From contig CAYFOI010000001.1 in assembly GCA_964344725.1 (NCBI GenBank), positions 61,762 to 125,761 on the forward strand: a stretch of 64,000 nucleotides of DNA. Direction: 5' to 3'. The notes under the pieces were generated by a model, which worked only from the letters and a program-made list of their open reading frames with translations, was not told the DNA's origin and searched no databases. The translations under genes were made by a program, and so were the position numbers. Below are positions 8,152 to 44,208 of the stretch, piece after piece. The DNA is from an uncultured Candidatus Peribacteria bacterium (GTDB lineage Bacteria > Patescibacteriota > Gracilibacteria > UBA1369 > UBA12470). Every line of letters starts with the position of its first letter. The stretch's first letter is position 1.

Positions 8152-9090
8152 ATGAGCGATTTACTGACACAACTCGAATCTTTCCTGAAAGAGCCCAAAG
8201 AAAAACCCCCATTAATCATAGTTTTGGGGCCTACAGCTTCAGGTAAGACAAGTTTATCTGTAAAACTTGCCCAAAAATTCAATGGAGAGATCCTCTCTTC
8301 TGATTCTAGGCAAATTTACAGGTATATGGATATAGGAACAGACAAGATTTCGCAAAAAGAAATGCAAGGGATTAAACACTATATGCTAGATGTATGTGAC
8401 CCAGATCGAACTTATACAATGGCCGATTTTCAAAGAGAAGCAACACACTCTATTAAAGAGATCCTTAATAAAGGCAAAATACCATTTTTAGTAGGTGGTA
8501 CGGGACTTTACATAAACGCAATAGCTGACAATTACCAGCTCGACAATGCACCTCCAGATCCAGCATTGCGTACAGAATTAGAACAAGAACTCGAAGAAAA
8601 AGGTGCAGAAGCTCTGCATGAAATGCTCAAAGAACTTGATCCGCTTTCAGCTTCAAAAATCCATCCAAACAATCATCATTACCTGATAAGAGCTCTTGAA
8701 ATAAATCTGAAAACCAAGCAACCGAAAAGCAATCGCCGAGGCGAACCTCCATACGAAACTTTCAAAATTGGTATAGATTGGGATCGCGAAGAACTTTATG
8801 AAAAGATTAACAGCCGGGTAGACGAACAGATAGACCGCGGGATCTTAAACGAAATCAAAACACTTCTAGCAAAAGGATATTCGCGTAATCTGCCGGCAAT
8901 GACAGGACTCGGATACAAAGAGTTCTTCCCATACTTGGATGGAGAAGCAACCCTCGAAGAATGCCTGGAACAACTAAAACAAAACACTCGGAACTATGCG
9001 AAAAGACAAATGACTTGGTTCCGCCGCGACGATGAGATATATTGGATCACCCCAAAGGAAGCAGCACAAATTAAAACTTTAGAATTCTAG
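8152..9090 (+). CDS. miaA: tRNA dimethylallyltransferase
   Basis: P-loop GPTASGKTSL; SSDSRQIYRYMDIGTDK; typical ~310 aa. Confidence 0.9.
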   Translation: MSDLLTQLESFLKEPKEKPPLIIVLGPTASGKTSLSVKLAQKFNGEILSSDSRQIYRYMDIGTDKISQKEMQGIKHYMLDVCDPDRTYTMADFQREATHSIKEILNKGKIPFLVGGTGLYINAIADNYQLDNAPPDPALRTELEQELEEKGAEALHEMLKELDPLSASKIHPNNHHYLIRALEINLKTKQPKSNRRGEPPYETFKIGIDWDREELYEKINSRVDEQIDRGILNEIKTLLAKGYSRNLPAMTGLGYKEFFPYLDGEATLEECLEQLKQNTRNYAKRQMTWFRRDDEIYWITPKEAAQIKTLEF

Positions 9091-9111
9091 AATTCTAAAA
9101 CTCTACGACAG

Positions 9112-17592: not shown

Positions 17593-17602
17593 GTTGTTTT
17601 TT

Positions 17603-17703
17603 GTTAGAATTCTAGAATTTTAGAGTTTTAGACCATCACCACCTACTACTGACTACCCACTACACTACGTACTACGGATTACGGATTACGTACTACCAAC
17701 TAG
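17603..17703. repeat. stop-rich word arrays (CTAGAATT family inverted, then CTAC / GGATTACG family)
   Basis: GTTAGAATTCTAGAATTTTAGAGTTTTAGACC, then CACCTACTACTGACTACCCACTACACTACGTACTACGGATTACGGATTACGTACTACCAACTAG, ending on the hisS stop. Confidence 0.9.
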
Positions 17704-31806: not shown

Positions 31807-33648
31807 ATGAACCACCAGAAATTCTACAAACTTAGATGCGTACAATGTAAGAAAGAAACTGCCGAAGAAAAAACAGCGACGGTTTGCCCAAGTTGCGGAG
31901 GTGCTTTGGATGTGGAATACGATTACGAGTACATCAAATCAAAGATGAATTTCTATTCGCTTAGGAACGCTCCGATATCGGCTAGGAAGTATCTTGGGTT
32001 TTATCCTCTGAACAACCTGAATCTGCTGGTTACGCTGAGTGAGGGCGGAACTCCCCTGAGAAACGCCCACAAACTCGGCAAGAAACTAGGACTGAAAAAT
32101 CTGTATATAAAAAATGAAGGCGCCAACCCCACGGGCGTCTTCAAAGATAGAGGGTCACTTGTAGAGCTTACAAAAGCTCGTGAACTTGGCGCAAAAGCTG
32201 TTTGCTGTGCATCAACAGGTAATATGGCAGCATCTGTTTCCGCTTATGCTGCAGCCTCAAATATGCCATGCTATGTGTTGGTGCCAGAAGGAACGCCAAT
32301 TGGCAAGTTGGCTCAGAGTCTGATTTACGGAGCTCGTATCCTCCAAATCCGTGGAACTTATGCAGACTGTTGTAGGCTTTGTGAGGAGATGGCGAAAAAG
32401 CACAACTTCTATCTTGCTGGAGACTATGTTTTCCGCGCAGAGGGACAGAAGTCTTGTGCTTATGAAATAATTGAACAGCTTTTTTGGAAAGTACCTGATG
32501 CGGTAATTGTGCCGATGGGTTGTGGTACAAACATTTCGGCTATTTGGAAAGGATTTAAAGATCTAAAAGCACTCGGCTTTATAAGAAAAATGCCAAAAAT
32601 GATAGGTGTACAACCTGAAAAAGTACCAACCATCGTTGATGCTTTTAGAAATAATAAAAAGAGATATACGAGAGTCGACAAACCATCTTCAGTAGCATCG
32701 GCGGTTGGAATTGGAGAACCGCTCGATGACATAAAAGCATTACGCACACTGCGCGAATCGGACGGCTGGGCAGAATCAGCAGAAGAAATGGAAATATTAC
32801 AGGCAGAAAAAGACATGGCCCACGAAGAGTCGATATTCGTCGAGCCAAGTGCAGCTTTGCCAGTCGCTTGTTTGAAAAAACTCCTCAAAAAGAAAGTAAT
32901 TAAGGAAAATGACGTTGTCGTATGTATTGCAACAGGCTTAGGACTGAAAGATCCGAAGTCAGCAACAGCAATTATGCCGGATCCACCGGTTTTAGAGCCG
33001 ACAAATGATGACATAGACAGATATCTAAAACACAAAATCTACGAAATTCGTGCAGCCTCAGTCGCAGGACGTGAAAATATGCTTTGGACAAAGATCCCAA
33101 CCAAAGAACAACTCAAGAAAATCGTAAAAAAAGAGTTCAATTTGACCCTGTCCAAAGGACATTTAGAAGAAGCTATCAGGCAAGTTAAGCTTTTCCACGA
33201 AAAAACAGAAAAAATGCGCCAAGCAGACTTGCAGTACATTGTTGAAAACGTCCTTAAGAACTTCACCGACAAGAAAAAAGTCCTAGAAGTTAAAGATTAC
33301 AAACTTGACGTAACTCGCCACGAAAAACCACGTGCAGAAGTAGAAGTCCTATACTTCGGCGAAACAATCCGTGTCGCAGCAAAAGGTGCGGGTCCAGTCG
33401 ACGCTATAATCAAAGCTGCCCGCAAAGCCATAGAAGGGAAGGATAAGCTAGAATGCTGGCTCACATCTTACAATGTAGAGATAAGCACCCAAGGTACAGA
33501 CGCCGTCGTAGAAGTTCAAATGGGTGTGAAATCAAAAGATGGAACAGAAGTCCTAGTCTCAGCAACATCACCTGATATAATCGTGGCATCAATTGATTGC
33601 TTCGAAAAAGGTTACAATAATTTATTCTATAAATCGAATGGCAAATGA
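31807..33648 (+). CDS. threonine-synthase-family PLP enzyme with N-terminal zinc ribbon and C-terminal LeuA/CimA-type (LeuA_dimer-like) regulatory domain
   Basis: CVQC...CPSC ribbon; NEGANPTGVFKDRG PLP-lysine motif; CASTGNMAAS. The C-terminal ~140 aa carry AAKGAGPVDAIIKAARKAI and SPDIIVASIDCFEKGYNNL, as in IPMS/citramalate synthase regulatory domains. Confidence 0.7.
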   Translation: MNHQKFYKLRCVQCKKETAEEKTATVCPSCGGALDVEYDYEYIKSKMNFYSLRNAPISARKYLGFYPLNNLNLLVTLSEGGTPLRNAHKLGKKLGLKNLYIKNEGANPTGVFKDRGSLVELTKARELGAKAVCCASTGNMAASVSAYAAASNMPCYVLVPEGTPIGKLAQSLIYGARILQIRGTYADCCRLCEEMAKKHNFYLAGDYVFRAEGQKSCAYEIIEQLFWKVPDAVIVPMGCGTNISAIWKGFKDLKALGFIRKMPKMIGVQPEKVPTIVDAFRNNKKRYTRVDKPSSVASAVGIGEPLDDIKALRTLRESDGWAESAEEMEILQAEKDMAHEESIFVEPSAALPVACLKKLLKKKVIKENDVVVCIATGLGLKDPKSATAIMPDPPVLEPTNDDIDRYLKHKIYEIRAASVAGRENMLWTKIPTKEQLKKIVKKEFNLTLSKGHLEEAIRQVKLFHEKTEKMRQADLQYIVENVLKNFTDKKKVLEVKDYKLDVTRHEKPRAEVEVLYFGETIRVAAKGAGPVDAIIKAARKAIEGKDKLECWLTSYNVEISTQGTDAVVEVQMGVKSKDGTEVLVSATSPDIIVASIDCFEKGYNNLFYKSNGK

Positions 33649-35339
33649 AATCTGATAATTTTAGTGAACAACAGCTGGGAGGGGGAGCTCGTGAGGGGGA
33701 ACCTAAGGTGCCCACTCACGAATTAAGATCTGATATTTTAAAAAAAGACGTTGCAACAATCCCACACCGCGCGCTCTTGCGAGCATGCGGCGTTACAGAG
33801 GATGACTTCAAAAAACCTTTCATCGGAGTCGCAAACTCATATAACGACGTAGTGCCAGGACACATACATCTGAACGAATTAACAGAGGAAGTTAAGCGCG
33901 GAATCCGCGATGCTGGAGGCGTCCCATTTGCTTGGGGAGTGCCTGGAGTTTGTGACGGGATAGCGATGTATGCGGAAATGCGTTTATCTCTTCCATCTCG
34001 AGAACATATTGCTGACAACATCGAGATCATGATGCTTTCTCATTCGTTTGATGGATGGGTCGGAGTCACTAATTGCGACAAAATTACGCCAGGAATGCTC
34101 ATGGCAGCAGGTCGTTTAGACTTGCCAGCAATGCTGATAACAGGCGGCCCTATGAAAAGAGCGGAAAGTGATGGTGAAAAAGTTCATCCAATCCAAGGAT
34201 TCGGATACGCAGGACAAGTTAAAGCCGGCAAAATGAGCCTCGAAGAAGCTGAAAAGAAACTCCAAATCTGCTCAAAATGTGGAGCCGGCTCTTGCGTTGG
34301 TCTATACACAGCAAACACAATGGCTTGTGTGACCGAAACACTCGGTATGTCCGTCACGAAATGTGCAACGACATGGGCTCTTTCAGAAGAAAAAAAGAAT
34401 CAGGCTTACGAAACAGGTCGTCGCATAGTTGAGTTGGTACAGCAAGACATGAAACCGTCTCAAATTATGACGAAAGAATCTTTTGAAAACGCAGTCAGGG
34501 TAGATATGACAATGGGAGGATCCACAAACGCAGTTCTTCATATCCCAGCGATCGCAAAAGAACTCGGTATCGAGATTGGCAACGACGATTTCGATAGGAT
34601 AGCTCGTGAAACCCCGAACATCTGCAAGCTTATTCCGGCCTCGGACAAATATGAAATGATCGATCTTGATAGGGCAGGCGGAATCCCCGCAGTTTTGAGT
34701 CGGATAAAAGATATGATTAATGATGGACAGACTGTGAACGGACGAACCATTATGGAAATCGCATCTTCAGCTGAAATTCTAGACGATGATGTTGTGAGAC
34801 CACTAGACAATCCTTACTTCGAACAAGGTGGAATAGCCGTTTTGAAAGGCAACATCGCGGAAGGATCTGTAATCAAACAAACAGCAGTCGTAGAAGACAT
34901 GATGGAGCACTCAGGTCCGGCAAAAGTTTTCACTTCAGAAGAAGATTTACTTGTAGCAATTGAGAAGAAAGAGATCGAAGAAGGCGACGTAGTTGTAATG
35001 CAATATATGGGACCGGCTGGAGCACCTGGAATGCCGGAAATGCTTACTCCGACAGACGCGATCAAAGGCGCAGGTTACAAAAAAGTCGCACTAATAACAG
35101 ATGGCAGATTTTCAGGAGGAACCGTAGGTCCATGCATAGCTCATATCGAACCAGAAGCATTTAACGGTGGACCAATTGCAGCAATCCGAGATGGTGACAT
35201 CATAGAAATCAGCGTCCCAAATCGTACACTCAATGTGAAACTCTCAGACGAAGAAATCGCAGAACGTCTCAAAACCGCACAAGCACCAGAAAGAAAAATG
35301 ACATCAGTCCTTGAAAGATATCGTGACATGTATTCATAA
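33645..35339 (+). CDS. ilvD: dihydroxy-acid dehydratase
   Basis: PHRALLRACGV, CDGIAM, CDKITPGMLMAA, TDGRFSGGT. The ATG overlaps the upstream stop (ATGA). Homology begins near codon 24, and an in-frame GTG at 33708 is an alternative start. Confidence 0.9.
   Translation: MKSDNFSEQQLGGGAREGEPKVPTHELRSDILKKDVATIPHRALLRACGVTEDDFKKPFIGVANSYNDVVPGHIHLNELTEEVKRGIRDAGGVPFAWGVPGVCDGIAMYAEMRLSLPSREHIADNIEIMMLSHSFDGWVGVTNCDKITPGMLMAAGRLDLPAMLITGGPMKRAESDGEKVHPIQGFGYAGQVKAGKMSLEEAEKKLQICSKCGAGSCVGLYTANTMACVTETLGMSVTKCATTWALSEEKKNQAYETGRRIVELVQQDMKPSQIMTKESFENAVRVDMTMGGSTNAVLHIPAIAKELGIEIGNDDFDRIARETPNICKLIPASDKYEMIDLDRAGGIPAVLSRIKDMINDGQTVNGRTIMEIASSAEILDDDVVRPLDNPYFEQGGIAVLKGNIAEGSVIKQTAVVEDMMEHSGPAKVFTSEEDLLVAIEKKEIEEGDVVVMQYMGPAGAPGMPEMLTPTDAIKGAGYKKVALITDGRFSGGTVGPCIAHIEPEAFNGGPIAAIRDGDIIEISVPNRTLNVKLSDEEIAERLKTAQAPERKMTSVLERYRDMYS
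33654..33720 (+). repeat. 67-nt G-rich hairpin module, copy 1 (inside annotated ilvD 5' end)
   Basis: 61/67 identical to 35447-35513 by manual alignment. Stems CGTGAG/CTCACG and GGGAACC/GGTGCCC. Confidence 0.9.
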
Positions 35340-37183
35340 TGACAAAGAATATTAAAAAAGGTGAATTAAAATTATACGAGCGCACGTCGAAACAAAAGAG
35401 ACGGGTCTCGTGGGTCCCGGCTCGCCTTGTTTCTAAGTTTAGTGAGGATGATTTTAATGAACAACAGCTGGGAGGGGGAGCCCGCGAGGGGGAACCTAAG
35501 GTACCCACTCGCGACAACTTAACAGGGTCGGATATAATAATGAAAAGCCTTATTAAAGAGGGAACAAAAGTCATATTCGGATATCCAGGAGGCGCGCTGA
35601 TCCCAATTTATGATGCAATGACCAACTATCCAGAGCTCAGGCATATCCTTGTAAGACACGAACAAGGCGCAGCTCTCGCCGCAGACGGATACGCTAGATC
35701 AACCGGCGAAGTTGGGGTTTGCCTAGGGACGTCAGGTCCAGGCGCAACCAACCTAGTCACGGGTATTGCAAACGCATACATGGACTCGGTCCCAATGGTT
35801 GCGATAACAGGACAGGTTAACAAAGGAATGCTAGGTAGCGACGCTTTCCAAGAAGTCGATATTACAGGAATTACGCTCCCGATTACGAAACACAATTATC
35901 TTGTCGACAATACAGAGGATCTCCCGATGATTATTAAGGAAGCTTTTTATATAGCAAAAAGCGGTCGCCCGGGTCCTGTGCATATCGATATTCCAGTCGA
36001 TCTTTGTAAAAAATCTTTAGACAGCTTTGAATATCCAGAAAAAATAGAAATCCCAGGCTTCGAAATCCCAGGTAAAGCGGACGAAGAAGCTGTGAAGAGA
36101 GCGGTAGAACTGATCCAAGAGTCAAAAAAACCGGTAATAATCTGTGGACATGGAGTTCCGATTTCAGGAGCATCCAAAGAGCTCACAGAACTTGCAGAAA
36201 GAAGCCACATTCCAGTAGTTCACACAATCCTCGGCAAAGGATCTTTCCCAGAAAGCAGTCCATTGTCATTCGGAATGCTAGGAATGCATGGTATGGCTTA
36301 TGCGAACTTCGCAGTTCATCACTCAGACTTAATAATCAATGTCGGATCACGTTTTGACGATAGAATTACAGGCAGCTTAGACGCTTTCGCAAAAGGAGCG
36401 AAGGTGATTCATGTCGATATCGACGCATCCGAGATCAACAAAAACGTTCCAGCATACTTGCCAGTAGTCGGTGACGCAAAAAAAGTCCTCAAGCAAATTC
36501 TCGAAATCCTGCCACACAAAAAACACCCAGATTGGCTTGATGAAATCGACGGATGGACTAAGAATTACCCACTCGCAGGCAAGGAAACAGAGATGCTCAC
36601 AGTTCCAAAAGTCCTTGTAAAACTGCACGAAGCAACAAAGGGTGATGCTCTTATAGTAACAGATGTAGGACAGCACCAAATGTGGTCAGCCCAATACTAT
36701 CCCCAAGACAAACCAAATAAATTCCACACATCAGGAGGTCTTGGCGCAATGGGATACGGACTCCCTGCAGCAATTGGAGCCCGTGTCGCAGATCCTGACG
36801 AAGAAATTTGGCTAATCAGCGGCGATGGAAGCTTCCAAATGAACATTCAGGAGCTTATGACAATTGTTCAGGAAAACATCGATATAAAGATCGCAATAAT
36901 GAACAATGGATTCCTTGGCATGGTCCGCCAATGGCAAGAAATGTTTTACGACAAAAACTACTCAGGCACACCGATAACAAGTCCAGATTACCAACTAATC
37001 GCAGAAGGCTACGGACTAAAACACTTAAGAGCTCGCACGGAGCAGGAGGCAGAAGACGTTATAAAAGCGGCTCGCGATCTCAAAGGTACGGTAATATGCG
37101 AATTTATAATAGAGCCAGAAGACAACGTATTTCCAATGGTCGCACCAGGCAAAGGACTAAAAGACACGTTGATTGGGAAATAG
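35339..37183 (+). CDS. ilvB: acetolactate synthase (AHAS) large subunit
   Basis: FGYPGGALIPIYDA, GLGAMGYGLPAAIGA, GDGSFQMN. The ATG overlaps the ilvD stop (TAATG). Homology starts near codon 62, and ATG 35540 is an alternative start. Confidence 0.9.
   Translation: MTKNIKKGELKLYERTSKQKRRVSWVPARLVSKFSEDDFNEQQLGGGAREGEPKVPTRDNLTGSDIIMKSLIKEGTKVIFGYPGGALIPIYDAMTNYPELRHILVRHEQGAALAADGYARSTGEVGVCLGTSGPGATNLVTGIANAYMDSVPMVAITGQVNKGMLGSDAFQEVDITGITLPITKHNYLVDNTEDLPMIIKEAFYIAKSGRPGPVHIDIPVDLCKKSLDSFEYPEKIEIPGFEIPGKADEEAVKRAVELIQESKKPVIICGHGVPISGASKELTELAERSHIPVVHTILGKGSFPESSPLSFGMLGMHGMAYANFAVHHSDLIINVGSRFDDRITGSLDAFAKGAKVIHVDIDASEINKNVPAYLPVVGDAKKVLKQILEILPHKKHPDWLDEIDGWTKNYPLAGKETEMLTVPKVLVKLHEATKGDALIVTDVGQHQMWSAQYYPQDKPNKFHTSGGLGAMGYGLPAAIGARVADPDEEIWLISGDGSFQMNIQELMTIVQENIDIKIAIMNNGFLGMVRQWQEMFYDKNYSGTPITSPDYQLIAEGYGLKHLRARTEQEAEDVIKAARDLKGTVICEFIIEPEDNVFPMVAPGKGLKDTLIGK
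35447..35513 (+). repeat. 67-nt G-rich hairpin module, copy 2 (inside annotated ilvB 5' end)
   Basis: See copy 1. The outer stem here is CGCGAG/CTCGCG. Confidence 0.9.
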
Positions 37184-37254
37184 TCAGTAGAAACTAACTT
37201 GCGCAAAGCGCTCCACTACTAAAATCCTCTAATCCTACAACCCTACAATCCTCC
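37181..37254. repeat. word array + GCGC-AAA-GCGC hairpin (37198-37214) + AATCCTNN 8-nt array between ilvB and ilvN
   Basis: TAGTCAGTAGAAACTAACTTGCGCAAAGCGCTCCACTACTAAAATCCTCTAATCCTACAACCCTACAATCCTCC, then ATG. Confidence 0.85.
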
Positions 37255-38096: not shown

Positions 38097-38137
38097 AAAA
38101 CTAATTCTAGAATTCTAAAACTCTAAAATTCTAACCC
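38091..38137. repeat. CTAGAATT/CTAAAACT 8-nt word array between ridA and ilvC
   Basis: AACTAGAAAACTAATTCTAGAATTCTAAAACTCTAAAATTCTAACCC. The same family occurs at 1051-1081, 6645-6669, 9073-9105 and (inverted) 17603-17634. Confidence 0.9.
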
Positions 38138-38146
38138 ATATACACT

Positions 38147-41878: not shown

Positions 41879-42817
41879 CTATCGTTTCCTCTTCCTAGAA
41901 GCAATATATCTCTCGATAGCCTGTTTGGTTGTAACCCAGTTCCGCCCATCTTTGTGGGCTTCTAATTTTCCTTGAGTAGCCAATTTTCTTAAATAAGCTG
42001 CAGAATAAGGTGAATCTTTGGAAAGTTCCTTAAGGCTAATATATTGTTCATCTTTTTTTTGGCTAGGGCTCAAAATACCTAAATAAATATTCAAACTTCG
42101 AATAACAGCTTGCGCAATAAATTCGCAAAGTGGGGCATAATTACCATCATCAGCTAAAGACAAAACCCTATAATAACGTTTCCGATCATTCTTTAGGATA
42201 ACTGCAATAGGATAGCCTTTACTCATTATTAAAATATTCATAACAAGACGAGCAGTTCTTCCATTGCCATCCCAGAAAGGGTGGATATAAGCCAATTTAT
42301 GATGCAAGAGAGCAGAAAACTCTACAGGATGCAACTTCCTTTTATTATTAGAAGCCCAATCAATAATACTCTTCATTTGAGAAGGAACTTGCAAATAACT
42401 TGGTGGTTTATGATCAGCTCCCCCAATAATGACATCTCCGTCGCGATATTTACCTGCTATATCTCTTTGAGAATCACGAACAACTAAAGTATGTAACTCT
42501 TTAATCAAATGTTCGGAGATAGTATGCCTTTTACTGTTATCAATAAGTTCGTAAAGATATTCCAAAGCTTCTTTATGATTTTTTGCTTCCAAATGATCTT
42601 TTAAAGGTTTTTCTTTAATAGTGATGCCTTCTTGTATTACCCAGAAAGTCTCTTTTAGGGTAAGGGAATTACCTTCGATAGCATTAGAATTATAAGTCAT
42701 TTCTATTTGAAATTGCTCTCGAATTTTGGCAAGTACGCTAGGATGAATTGGCCTTAATGAGTTGAGTTTCTTAAGTTTCTCTTCTAGGGCACGAATTGTA
42801 TTTCCTGAAAGATGCAT
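41879..42817 (-). CDS. Fic-family AMPylase with intramolecular inhibitory motif and C-terminal HTH
   Basis: HPFWDGNGRTARL Fic motif; SNAIEGN matches (S/T)xxxE(G/N). The C-terminal ISLKELSKDSPYSAAYLRKLATQGKLEA is HTH-like. Start moved to ATG 42817 because a consensus promoter lies inside the longer track ORF. Confidence 0.8.
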   Translation of the reverse strand: MHLSGNTIRALEEKLKKLNSLRPIHPSVLAKIREQFQIEMTYNSNAIEGNSLTLKETFWVIQEGITIKEKPLKDHLEAKNHKEALEYLYELIDNSKRHTISEHLIKELHTLVVRDSQRDIAGKYRDGDVIIGGADHKPPSYLQVPSQMKSIIDWASNNKRKLHPVEFSALLHHKLAYIHPFWDGNGRTARLVMNILIMSKGYPIAVILKNDRKRYYRVLSLADDGNYAPLCEFIAQAVIRSLNIYLGILSPSQKKDEQYISLKELSKDSPYSAAYLRKLATQGKLEAHKDGRNWVTTKQAIERYIASRKRKR

Positions 42818-42850
42818 AAGGTTAAAATAAGGTACGATAGGCTCAAAAAC

Positions 42851-42879
42851 ATTATATCGTACCTTAAGCAATAAGTCAA
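42851..42879 (-). promoter_or_regulatory. promoter TTGACT-N17-TATAAT
   Basis: Read on the minus strand: -35 at 42879-42874 and -10 at 42856-42851. Confidence 0.6.
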
Positions 42880-42985: not shown

Positions 42986-44101
42986 TTAGCTTAGGAAAAA
43001 CTCGCCTTGGCGATGAATTAAACGGAAAGCCTCCATAACTCTAGCTATTTCTTCTTCAGACTCATCACCGCAGATTGTCAAAGGAGATCCGTGGTCTCTT
43101 AGGCGTGCAAAAGTATCCACGACAGGGTCAAGTCCAGAAGCTTCGTGAGGTTCAAGTGCTACACGATTCACCAATATATCGTAGAATCTATCTTGTAAAT
43201 CAGGGAGATGTAGCCAATGCATATCACCTTGCTTAGCACGAAATCCCAACCCCTTGGCAAAAGCATCATAGTCATAATTAACACCTGAAGCTGGAATTAA
43301 AGTAAATCTTTTATCTCTAGCACCTGCTAATGACAAGCATTTCATAGAATCGGCACCGAGATCATAAGCAACATACATAGCAAGTAAGCCGAGAGCTCTA
43401 GAAGGATGTAGTTTTAATGCTTTCTTAAATCTGCCACACGCCTGGACTTTTTCATCATAACCAGCTTTCTTTGGGGACATGCCGCTGCCACAGCGAACAA
43501 TCCTAACAGCTGTACCATCTTCGACCTGTTCAGTATCTAAACCAAGTCGCCAAACTTCTCCAGATATATGAAACCTCTGTCCTTTTTCAACACCTATAGC
43601 CAAATCGACAGAAAATGTCCCTGATCCACTACCACCTTTGCAAGACAAATAACAGCCAGTTCCAGGTATAGTTTCTTTATAAAACATTCCACGTTGTTTA
43701 GAATACTTAGGATGTCTTGCAAAAAAGTCCATTCCAAATCGACTAATCCAAAACTGTGCATTAGTCAAGATCTGATCTAGAACATGATCTAAGTCTGTAG
43801 AGGTAGTCATGTATTTAAAAGCATTAGACTTAAAGAAGTCTTTAAACTGAGTAACAACGCCTAAGTCACCTAGAAACGCAGCAACTCTATCGGATTGATC
43901 TGCAGATGGAGGATCAGAAATAAGACCTTTTAGCTTAAGATACTTCATAAATCCATCAATAACCCTACGAGGCATTTCTACAGATGGAGCAAGATCTAAT
44001 GCTCCCTGATCAGGCAGTAGCAAGCCATCTCCGCCAGGTATAACAAGCCTATCTGTTTTAATCCCTTGATCTTCCATAAGAATAAATATAACGACAGACA
44101 T
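42986..44101 (-). CDS. hypothetical protein (372 aa, no recognised domain)
   Basis: Track ORF trimmed to ATG 44101, because codons 1-31 overlap the tRNA-Gly gene and its terminator. Confidence 0.5.
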   Translation of the reverse strand: MSVVIFILMEDQGIKTDRLVIPGGDGLLLPDQGALDLAPSVEMPRRVIDGFMKYLKLKGLISDPPSADQSDRVAAFLGDLGVVTQFKDFFKSNAFKYMTTSTDLDHVLDQILTNAQFWISRFGMDFFARHPKYSKQRGMFYKETIPGTGCYLSCKGGSGSGTFSVDLAIGVEKGQRFHISGEVWRLGLDTEQVEDGTAVRIVRCGSGMSPKKAGYDEKVQACGRFKKALKLHPSRALGLLAMYVAYDLGADSMKCLSLAGARDKRFTLIPASGVNYDYDAFAKGLGFRAKQGDMHWLHLPDLQDRFYDILVNRVALEPHEASGLDPVVDTFARLRDHGSPLTICGDESEEEIARVMEAFRLIHRQGEFFLS

Positions 44102-44107
44102 AATAAA

Positions 44108-44133
44108 ACAAAAAAGCCTTCTAGTCAAGGCCT
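44108..44133 (-). terminator. weak intrinsic terminator after tRNA-Gly
   Basis: Minus-strand GCCUU-GACUAG-AAGGC followed by UUUUUUGUUUU. Confidence 0.4.
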
Positions 44134-44208
44134 TGGAGCGGGTAACGGGAATTGAACCCGTGTTTACTGATTGGCAACCAGTCGTAATAGCCACTATACG
44201 ATACCCGC
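44134..44208 (-). tRNA. tRNA-Gly (anticodon GCC), CCA encoded
   Basis: Manual cloverleaf: acceptor GCGGGTA/TACCCGC, anticodon stem ACTGG/TCAGT with loop TTGCCAA, T arm ACGGG-TTCAATT-CCCGT, discriminator T, CCA. 75 nt. Confidence 0.9.

Follow-up and report, generated by a model that had tools for sequence, protein, structure and literature searches.

An in-frame, hairpin-forming element of about 160 nt near the 5′ ends of ilvD and ilvB in a Candidatus Peribacteria bacterium

A stretch of 64,000 nt from an uncultured Candidatus Peribacteria bacterium (assembly GCA_964344725.1, contig CAYFOI010000001.1; the whole stretch is called the window here) contains an ilv operon in which two genes of branched-chain amino acid (BCAA) metabolism, ilvD and ilvB, carry the same G-rich module close to their 5′ ends. 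A G-rich hairpin common to two BCAA genes tempts one to think of a riboswitch, but what is present at both sites is an inserted element. The module is probably the 3′ end of a structured element of about 160 nt that is mobile now, or was so recently, and that is tolerated in frame in ilvD and ilvB; it would thus resemble the Rickettsia palindromic elements (RPEs) and not a BCAA riboswitch. Insertion sites that are empty in relatives, preserved reading frames, flanking duplications, selection for the fold on the sense strand and a lack of gene specificity carry this conclusion.

The initial annotation had drawn attention to a duplicated 67-nt G-rich module, and a repeat search of the window returned it as a two-copy family, with 62 of 68 positions (91%) identical between 33654-33721 (copy 1) and 35447-35514 (copy 2; all coordinates are on the forward strand unless marked otherwise). 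The copies coincide with the two most G-rich 30-mers of the window (17 G in 30), a 38-nt core pattern has exactly two occurrences in the window and none in 100 shuffles, and there is no third copy in the 64 kb, a covariance model run with its filters off recovering copies 1 and 2 only. Both lie within, and in frame with, the longest open reading frames (ORFs) of ilvD (33645-35339, 564 aa) and ilvB (35339-37183, 614 aa).

The module, which had been taken for a self-contained unit, is in fact the 3′ third of the element. When one genome per species was scanned with a degenerate pattern, three Patescibacteria/Peribacteria metagenome-assembled genomes matched, and a pattern scan of metagenome contigs gave six further places, so that the proposed check for homologues did bring up further copies in public genomes and metagenomes (loci L001-L009), with covarying stems. 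The public collections were searched by exact patterns, and about ten members of the family were found; because the patterns demanded both G tracts, the invariance of these tracts is partly a product of the search. About 100 nt on the 5′ side of the module in L001-L004 and L009 align with the sequence 5′ of copy 2, and six full-length copies (copy 2, L001-L004 and L009) can be aligned across about 160 nt. The 3′ module is 88-94% identical to copy 1 in four of the five other Peregrinibacteria-type copies and 82% identical in L004, and the GC-rich variants L005, L007 and L008 retain the 3′ module and the overall architecture with a different 5′ domain.

Insertions in the ilv operon and empty sites in relatives

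The operon order, with a gene for a beta-CASP nuclease and, further along, PALP-LeuA_dimer, ilvD, ilvB, ilvN, ridA and ilvC, is common to the window and its relatives. One close relative, L010, has an IlvB that is 87% identical and lacks the element at both the ilvA/ilvD and the ilvD/ilvB junction. At the latter (...TTTTCAAAATGAAAAATACTAATTTGACGGGTTCGGAC), the ilvD TGA overlaps ATG AAA AAT ACT AAT TTG ACG GGT, and the encoded protein begins MKNTNLTGSD. The corresponding sequence of the window is ATG ACA AAG AAT, followed by 165 nt and then by AAC TTA ACA GGG TCG GAT (NLTG...), which is an in-frame insert of 55 codons after codon 4 of ilvB (copy 2, 35351-35515).

At ilvD, the gene of L010 starts with ATG AGA TCT GAC ATA CTG behind a G-less leader, and the window has ATG AAA TCT GAT, 66 nt of insert (copy 1, 33657-33722, 22 codons) and TTA AGA TCT GAT ATT TTA, so that the insert is flanked on either side by the first four codons. 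The left target copy (33645-33656, MKSD) begins with an ATG that overlaps the TGA stop codon of the upstream ilvA-like gene (ATGA), and the right one (33723-33734, LRSD) is orthologous to ATG AGA TCT GAC of L010, with ATG changed to TTA. A target duplication with loss of the downstream ATG accounts for the leucine (TTA) of the window at the position where every homologue has the initiator methionine: LRSDIL of the window aligns with the M[RK]S[DE]IL start of all 119 closest IlvD homologues. The flanking repeat of copy 1 (ATGAAATCTGAT / TTAAGATCTGAT, 12 nt) scores just above the 95% level of shuffles and falls exactly at the boundaries that are set by the empty site.

The absence of the element from these sites extends beyond L010. 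Alignments revealed no copy at either junction in L017 and none at ilvD/ilvB in L011, and the covariance model had no match in the ilv loci of L011-L016 (IlvB 72% identical). Copy 2 was found with 0 mismatches in two independent assemblies from other samples and is thus not an assembly artefact. Judged by these sequence comparisons, both copies of the window are recent insertions and not conserved leaders.

A third insertion event with an empty site is provided by L010 itself, which has a decayed copy between ilvN and ridA (L010 3795-3940; 51.5 bits over model positions 19-91). On either side of it is a 23-nt direct repeat, ATCACATCACTTAAATCAYTAAC, which occurs once in the window, so that the window represents the empty site for the L010 copy. 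The stems of the L010 copy are closer to L001 and L002 than to copy 2, so that simple orthology does not hold between the elements of these two close relatives. The 3′ end is missing from the L010 copy and might have been lost through a later deletion between CGCGAA and the terminal CACGAA.

Outside the ilv operon, the element lies upstream of rsmA/ksgA in L001, upstream of a glycosyltransferase gene in L002 and within dinB in L009 (..VPPRAILHVDADAFF). In L009, an exact 15-nt repeat, TCGGGCTATTTTACA, flanks an in-frame insertion of 201 nt, and the first five bases of this repeat (TCGGG) coincide with the end of the terminal hairpin, forming a 5-nt microhomology. An extra, near-perfect hairpin (ATCTCGAAATTTAAAAAATTTCGAGAT, L009 3227-3266) separates the left target duplication there from the conserved 5′ motif of the element, and owing to it the inserted unit is longer in L009 than elsewhere. 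The frame is kept without stop codons in three insertions, copy 2 (165 nt), copy 1 (66 + 12 nt) and L009 (201 nt), and all of these lengths are multiples of three.

Architecture, covariation and reading frames of the element

From 5′ to 3′, the element consists of an A-run with GTGAG, a long irregular hairpin of about 100 nt, a linker (GAACAACAGCU), a G-rich loop and a terminal hairpin. The long hairpin of copy 2 (35361-35462) is closed by GU-GA / GA-AC and by P1 (AUUAAAAU / AUUUUAAU), and it bears an apical segment, GGGTCTCGTGGGTCCC (35403-35418), made up of a closing GGG/CCC and a 10-nt loop. An alignment of ten sequences places the G-rich loop, GGGAGGGGG (35470-35478), with its flanks GCU/AGC at 35467-35481, and the predicted fold and the alignment place the terminal hairpin, CGCGAGGGGG AACCUAAGGUA CCCACUCGCG, at 35483-35513. 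Copy 2 matches covariance model R1 from 35358 to 35514 (model positions 1-158) with 160.8 bits, which is as good a score as that of any other member and marks it as intact, and the minimum-free-energy fold of the 165-nt insert is the consensus structure (-53.1 kcal/mol, z = -2.6). Copy 1, with 67.2 bits (33637-33721), is truncated at its 5′ side and retains the 3′ strand of P1, the G-rich loop and the terminal hairpin, that is, the last 66-68 nt of the element.

Both loops are strongly conserved. The apical sequence GGGUCUCGUGGGYCCC is the same in all six full-length copies save for the one Y position, and it has also been kept in the decayed L010 copy. The motif GGAGGGGGAGC is identical in ten of ten sequences, but it was a search requirement, and the GCU/AGC pairs around the G-rich loop exhibit no covariation among the ten sequences. 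The apical loop (35404-35413 in the window) contains, in all homologues, GTCTCGTGGG, which equals the first 10 nt of the Nextera read-2 adapter. Adapter contamination was rejected, as only about 10 nt are identical, the flanks differ from the adapter and form a covarying stem, and independent assemblies agree; the identity looks like a coincidence.

The terminal hairpin, with the consensus NNNGAGGGGG-AACCnnnGGUn-CCCCCUCNNN, is predicted in both copies of the window (33690-33720 and 35483-35513), as the initial annotation had stated, although the stems differ from those it described: the conserved stem is GAGGGGG/CCCCCUC together with three outer, covarying pairs. A G.A mismatch (CCCAC) is present in both window copies, and taken singly, their hairpins exceed shuffles only modestly (z = -1.6 and -1.8). 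The compensatory difference between the two copies in the outer stem, U:A versus C:G, is real; the C:G of copy 2 is the derived state, U:A being present in copy 1, L001, L002 and L003.

Across the homologues, the stems covary strongly. RNAalifold assigns 52 pairs to the six full-length copies, 24 of them with changes on both sides, and 22 of the 35 pairs in helices 1-4 of the long hairpin have changed on both sides across the six loci. In a trimmed alignment, 92% of the cells are paired, compared to 32-50% in slid controls, and 51 cells are doubly changed, compared to 17.5 in shuffles, though it should be noted that the 52-pair structure was derived from the same six sequences on which it was tested. 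On four of the five measures, the observed values were not attained in any of 500 shuffles; on further pair types, they were attained in 1 of 500. With a structure that we had specified, the terminal hairpin proved to be 96% paired in ten sequences, with covariation in all three outer pairs (CG/AU; GC/AU/CG; CG/UA). Cells with G-U or U-G number 14, and A-C or C-A occurs in one. Palindromes maintained as double-stranded DNA are expected to accumulate G-U and A-C about equally, and the excess of G-U over A-C therefore indicates selection of the fold as RNA, on the sense strand. The strong covariation in this sequence set thus argues that the element is a genuine conserved RNA structure.

The family is absent from the Rfam library. 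A scan of the whole window at gathering thresholds returned a tRNA only, an E-value scan of 33550-35600 gave only two matches at chance level (E = 2.6 and 6.9), and a scan of L001-L009 at E <= 0.1 gave tRNAs and one chance match overlapping a tRNA, with nothing on the element. The families that had no match include T-box, ykkC/ppGpp, twister, hatchet, pistol, HDV-like, SRP and 6S, and the earlier statement that the module fits no described riboswitch or leader class is borne out by the scans of the window and of the nine further loci.

In each of the four full-length copies that abut a gene (copy 2, L001, L002 and L009), a single frame is open, and it agrees in phase with the adjoining gene; L003 and L004, which stand alone, are interrupted by stop codons in each of the three frames. 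The in-phase frame of L001 is frame 2, and that of the window, L002 and L009 is frame 1, with a shift of frame inside the L009 element. In ilvB, the ATG at 35339 overlaps the ilvD stop codon (TAATG) and is the sole in-frame start upstream of the region TGSDII, at which the homology to solved AHAS begins (ORF residues 56-62; the alignment with 6lpi, the structure of E. coli IlvB, starts at residue 56) and which also aligns with MKNTNLTGSD of L010. Translation of ilvB probably starts upstream of ATG 35531, and ATG 35339 is the likely start codon, because the homology precedes ATG 35531 and there is no other in-frame start upstream. The ilvD gene has two candidate starts, ATG 33645 and GTG 33708, its ancestral ATG now being TTA. 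Both copies thus lie on the 5′ side of the onset of IlvD and AHAS homology, as had been noted.

The open in-phase frames, the lack of in-frame stops and the stop-overlapping ATGs lead us to infer read-through. Most likely, both inserts are translated into Gly/Glu/Pro-rich N-terminal extensions of 26 (IlvD, including copy 1) and 55 residues (IlvB); the translated copies would read ...DNFSEQQLGGGAREGEPKVPTH... and ...DDFNEQQLGGGAREGEPKVPTR..., and the predicted extension peptides include SDNFSEQQLGGGAR and VSWVPAR. Stable structure sets in about 22 nt (ilvB) and 45 nt (ilvD) past the start codons, which would thus not be occluded. An upstream ORF in the +1 frame (MNNSWEGE..., GTG 33664 / ATG 35457) had also been considered, because a start codon opens it in each copy and a TAA lies immediately ahead of the conserved protein; it was rejected because all differences are non-synonymous in this frame and the start is absent in other loci. 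An alternative genetic code was rejected as well, as TAA (27), TAG (21) and TGA (9) all serve as stops in long intact ORFs, in accordance with the standard code.

The initial annotation had proposed that a Shine-Dalgarno (SD) motif and a GTG start of ilvD are buried in the hairpin. The GTG at 33708-33710 is indeed in frame with ilvD and is an unpaired position beside the 3′ strand of the main stem of the copy 1 terminal hairpin. It had also been remarked that other starts have no SD motif, and none was found in the upstream 30 nt of any of the 57 ORFs of the window, which are G-poor regions; in such a host, the G tracts of the element are unlikely to be ribosome-binding sites. In addition, the loop codon is GTG in six, GTT in three and GTA in one of ten copies, and in L001 it does not share the phase of the gene. 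The proposed buried start is therefore not upheld.

Many upstream regions of the window consist of tandem 7-8-nt G-less units (TCTAGAAT, CTACAAA and CCTA types) directly 5′ of the ATG, for example, at 37217-37254, 38097-38146, 9069-9111, 1047-1085 and 17602-17630, and they are also present in relatives (L010 1-31; L011 9975-10000). These units may constitute a lineage-specific translation leader.

Probable mobility and alternative explanations

In the explanation that we favour, ilvB received a complete copy behind its codon 4 and ilvD a 5′-truncated copy behind its own codon 4, with duplication of the first four codons of ilvD. Ribosomes starting at the stop-overlapping ATGs would read through both inserts, and the copies that survive would be those at gene starts, where they can be tolerated as in-frame extensions. 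The conserved loops and the 3′ module would be kept for the propagation of the element itself or for an RNA function. We take the insertions to be translated and tolerated rather than regulatory.

Several observations weigh against a mobile, tolerated element. Significant flanking repeats were not found for copy 2 and L001-L004, and the duplications elsewhere are 12-23 nt long; a fixed-length short target duplication, as in a classical miniature inverted-repeat transposable element (MITE), is not present, the lengths being 12, 15 and 23 nt or zero. Terminal inverted repeats were not seen, the 5′ end (A-run and GTGAG) and the 3′ end (CCCCCUCNNN) not being inverted across loci, and neither a transposase nor an integrase or reverse transcriptase was found among the 57 ORFs of the window or the ten scanned ORFs that flank the element elsewhere. 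Few copies were seen, with two in 64 kb and one match to the strict pattern on a 715-kb contig (L004) and one on a 328-kb contig, which is unlike typical MITE or RPE families. Three insertions in one ilv operon of two relatives could reflect local hopping, or else selection for an effect of the element there, and the conservation of the 3′ module and its recurrence beside tRNA genes in GC-rich bacteria point to a cellular RNA function, for which purely selfish propagation offers no explanation. Finally, translation of the extensions is inferred, not observed. A phage, plasmid or viral origin was rejected, as two pattern scans of viral contigs and blastn searches of phage and plasmid collections gave no match, and a template/variable repeat pair of the type found in diversity-generating retroelements was rejected because the differences between copies 1 and 2 are not adenine-specific.

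The cellular function could be that of a stand-alone small RNA gene, trans-acting or protein-binding, of which the intact copies would be functional, copy 1 and the L010 copy would be dispersed and pseudogene-like, and the overlap with ORFs would be incidental or tolerated. The surroundings of some copies fit such a gene: on its 715-kb contig, L004 is the sole pattern match, and downstream of it come an intrinsic-terminator-like hairpin, which has a U run, and a convergent gene, L007 and L008 adjoin tRNA genes, and L005 has no in-phase downstream ORF, with uvrB and a DUF1360 gene on its upstream side. Invariant loops and covarying stems are as in functional RNAs, related architectures occur in GC-rich bacteria, and copy 2 scores on a par with any member. 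However, this only intact copy seen in the genome is inside the frame of ilvB, at a position that is not conserved and is empty in close relatives, and its excision from the mRNA would cut ilvB. Moreover, no known RNA family matches and no conserved protein-coding neighbour was seen. We consider a stand-alone gene unlikely, albeit credible, and it should be noted that it overlaps with the explanation that we favour, because a mobile element can derive from such an RNA.

Rather improbable, in our judgement, is a cis-regulatory leader that has been co-opted by the ilv operon, be it a riboswitch or thermosensor or a ribosome-recruiting site in a genome devoid of SD motifs. The five in-phase, gene-adjacent copies (copies 1 and 2, L001, L002 and L009) and the decayed L010 copy are all in sense orientation near a start codon, two identical GAGGGGGA tracts could compete for the single CCCCCUC, the intact copy has kept its hairpin via a compensatory double change, and the in-frame loop GTGs (copy 1, L002 and L009) and the three insertions in the same operon would also be in accord with a leader. 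Nevertheless, the downstream genes share no function (ilvD, ilvB, rsmA, a glycosyltransferase gene, dinB, a tRNA gene or none), so that a BCAA-specific association was not found; the orthologous sites of relatives are empty, the host genes lack upstream SD motifs, the loop codon varies, the invariance of the G tracts is in part artefactual, and neither T-box nor ykkC-type families match. Of the cis-regulatory RNA that the initial annotation had suggested for the two BCAA genes, the conserved RNA structure is thus genuine, but the BCAA specificity is contradicted by the unrelated neighbours and the empty sites.

Selection at the protein level, for a targeting or regulatory N-terminal peptide shared by IlvD and IlvB, is effectively refuted. 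The two in-frame copies specify 22 residues that are almost identical (D[ND]F[SN]EQQLGGGAREGEPKVPT[HR]), and three of the six nucleotide differences are synonymous. Across the homologues, however, the covarying codon specifies R, H, P, N or T, the variable columns are distributed 8, 8 and 11 over the codon positions, so that the wobble position is as conserved as the others, the frame differs in L001 and shifts inside the element in L009, stand-alone copies have stops in all frames, and the enzymes of relatives do not have the peptide. When the 39-residue translation was compared exhaustively by HMMER with 1.84 billion representative proteins, there were 0 matches; a word-index protein search with the 67-aa N-terminus also found nothing, but this is a weak negative, as it missed the window's own proteins too.

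Known dispersed elements offer partial parallels to the mobile, in-frame element favoured here. RPEs are hairpin-forming sequences of about 100-150 nt that lie in frame in unrelated genes and are translated as an extra peptide, occur also at non-coding positions, have no coding capacity for their own mobilisation and are present in dozens of copies (PMC10969869). The likeness lies in features: the present element, too, forms hairpins, is inserted in frame, leaves the ORF open and has empty sites in relatives. In contrast to the dozens of RPE copies, only one or two copies of the present element were seen per contig. Its coding insertions are all within the first few codons, it is bordered by long duplications of differing length (12-23 nt), inverted termini were not seen, the 5′ truncation of one copy has left its 3′ end intact, selection of the fold acts on one strand (G-U far exceeding A-C), and the loops are invariant, with the family distributed over several Peregrinibacteria-type lineages and a GC-rich variant; in all of these points it is unlike RPEs. 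ERIC, Correia/NEMIS, BOX and RUP elements are small and non-autonomous, lie at gene boundaries and are co-transcribed, and their stable RNA hairpins can affect mRNA processing or stability. However, they have terminal inverted repeats, short fixed-length duplications and many copies, usually outside ORFs, and none of these features was seen for the present element. The BCAA riboswitches and leaders (T-box, ppGpp/ykkC subtype 2a) and RNA thermometers share with it a structured RNA 5′ of ilv genes and a purine tract that is paired in a hairpin, but the element has no covariance-model match, gene specificity or orthologous conservation, lies within the reading frame, and has host genes without upstream SD motifs.

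A further parallel is with the short interspersed nuclear elements (SINEs) and the processed pseudogenes of small RNAs of eukaryotes. The element might be a bacterial counterpart, a structured RNA copied back by target-primed reverse transcription or a comparable RNA-templated repair; we regard this as a rather improbable proposal, and we know of no SINE-type element in bacteria. An enzyme would recognise the RNA through the invariant 3′ module and the apical loop, and the surviving insertions would be those in the first codons or between genes. The structured small-RNA origin and the structure on the sense strand would be shared with SINEs, and the proposal would account for the constant 3′ end, the truncation of copy 1, the variable duplications (12, 15 and 23 nt), the TCGGG microhomology in L009 and the G-U-tolerant, strand-specific fold. 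Unlike SINEs, however, the element has no A-rich tail, a partner reverse transcriptase was not found in the scanned ORFs (no such domain is encoded by the 57 ORFs of the window), L009 has an extra 5′ hairpin, and the L010 copy has no 3′ end. The evidence from junctions comprises only three or four informative events, the L010 copy among them.

The element adds a structured, covariation-supported family outside Rfam to bacteria of the candidate phyla radiation (CPR), for which, to our knowledge, few mobile elements and non-coding RNAs have been described. In essential genes of metabolism and repair (ilvD, ilvB and dinB), a structured element has clearly been inserted in frame, with empty sites in relatives; the best-known precedent is that of Rickettsia. 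The combination of a 5′ truncation, variable duplications and selection on the RNA strand makes RNA-mediated spread in bacteria directly testable. For genome annotation, it is a warning that N-terminal extensions of CPR enzymes can be derived from an element.

Other features of the window

One further ORF with an unusual N-terminus is that of ribosomal protein L7/L12 (6667-7224, reverse strand; 185 aa), which has a Lys/Glu/Pro-rich extension of about 55 residues before the dimerisation domain; the covariance model detected no copy of the element in it. A 402-aa ORF without a Pfam match (42986-44208, reverse strand) overlaps the only tRNA gene of the window (44137-44208) and adjoins a gene for a Fic-domain protein (41879-42871).

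The closest homologues of IlvD are labelled as Nanoarchaeota/Woesearchaeota (72-78% identity), and those of IlvB belong to Peregrinibacteria-type bins (ACD_51; 72-87%). The labels suggest either that genes have passed between CPR bacteria and DPANN archaea or that bins are mislabelled. At the head of the ilv operon, a gene (31807-33648) encodes a PLP-dependent (PALP) domain fused to a LeuA allosteric/dimerisation domain, with an N-terminal CxxC...CxxC motif, and this PALP-LeuA fusion is conserved in relatives (L011 6352-8202).

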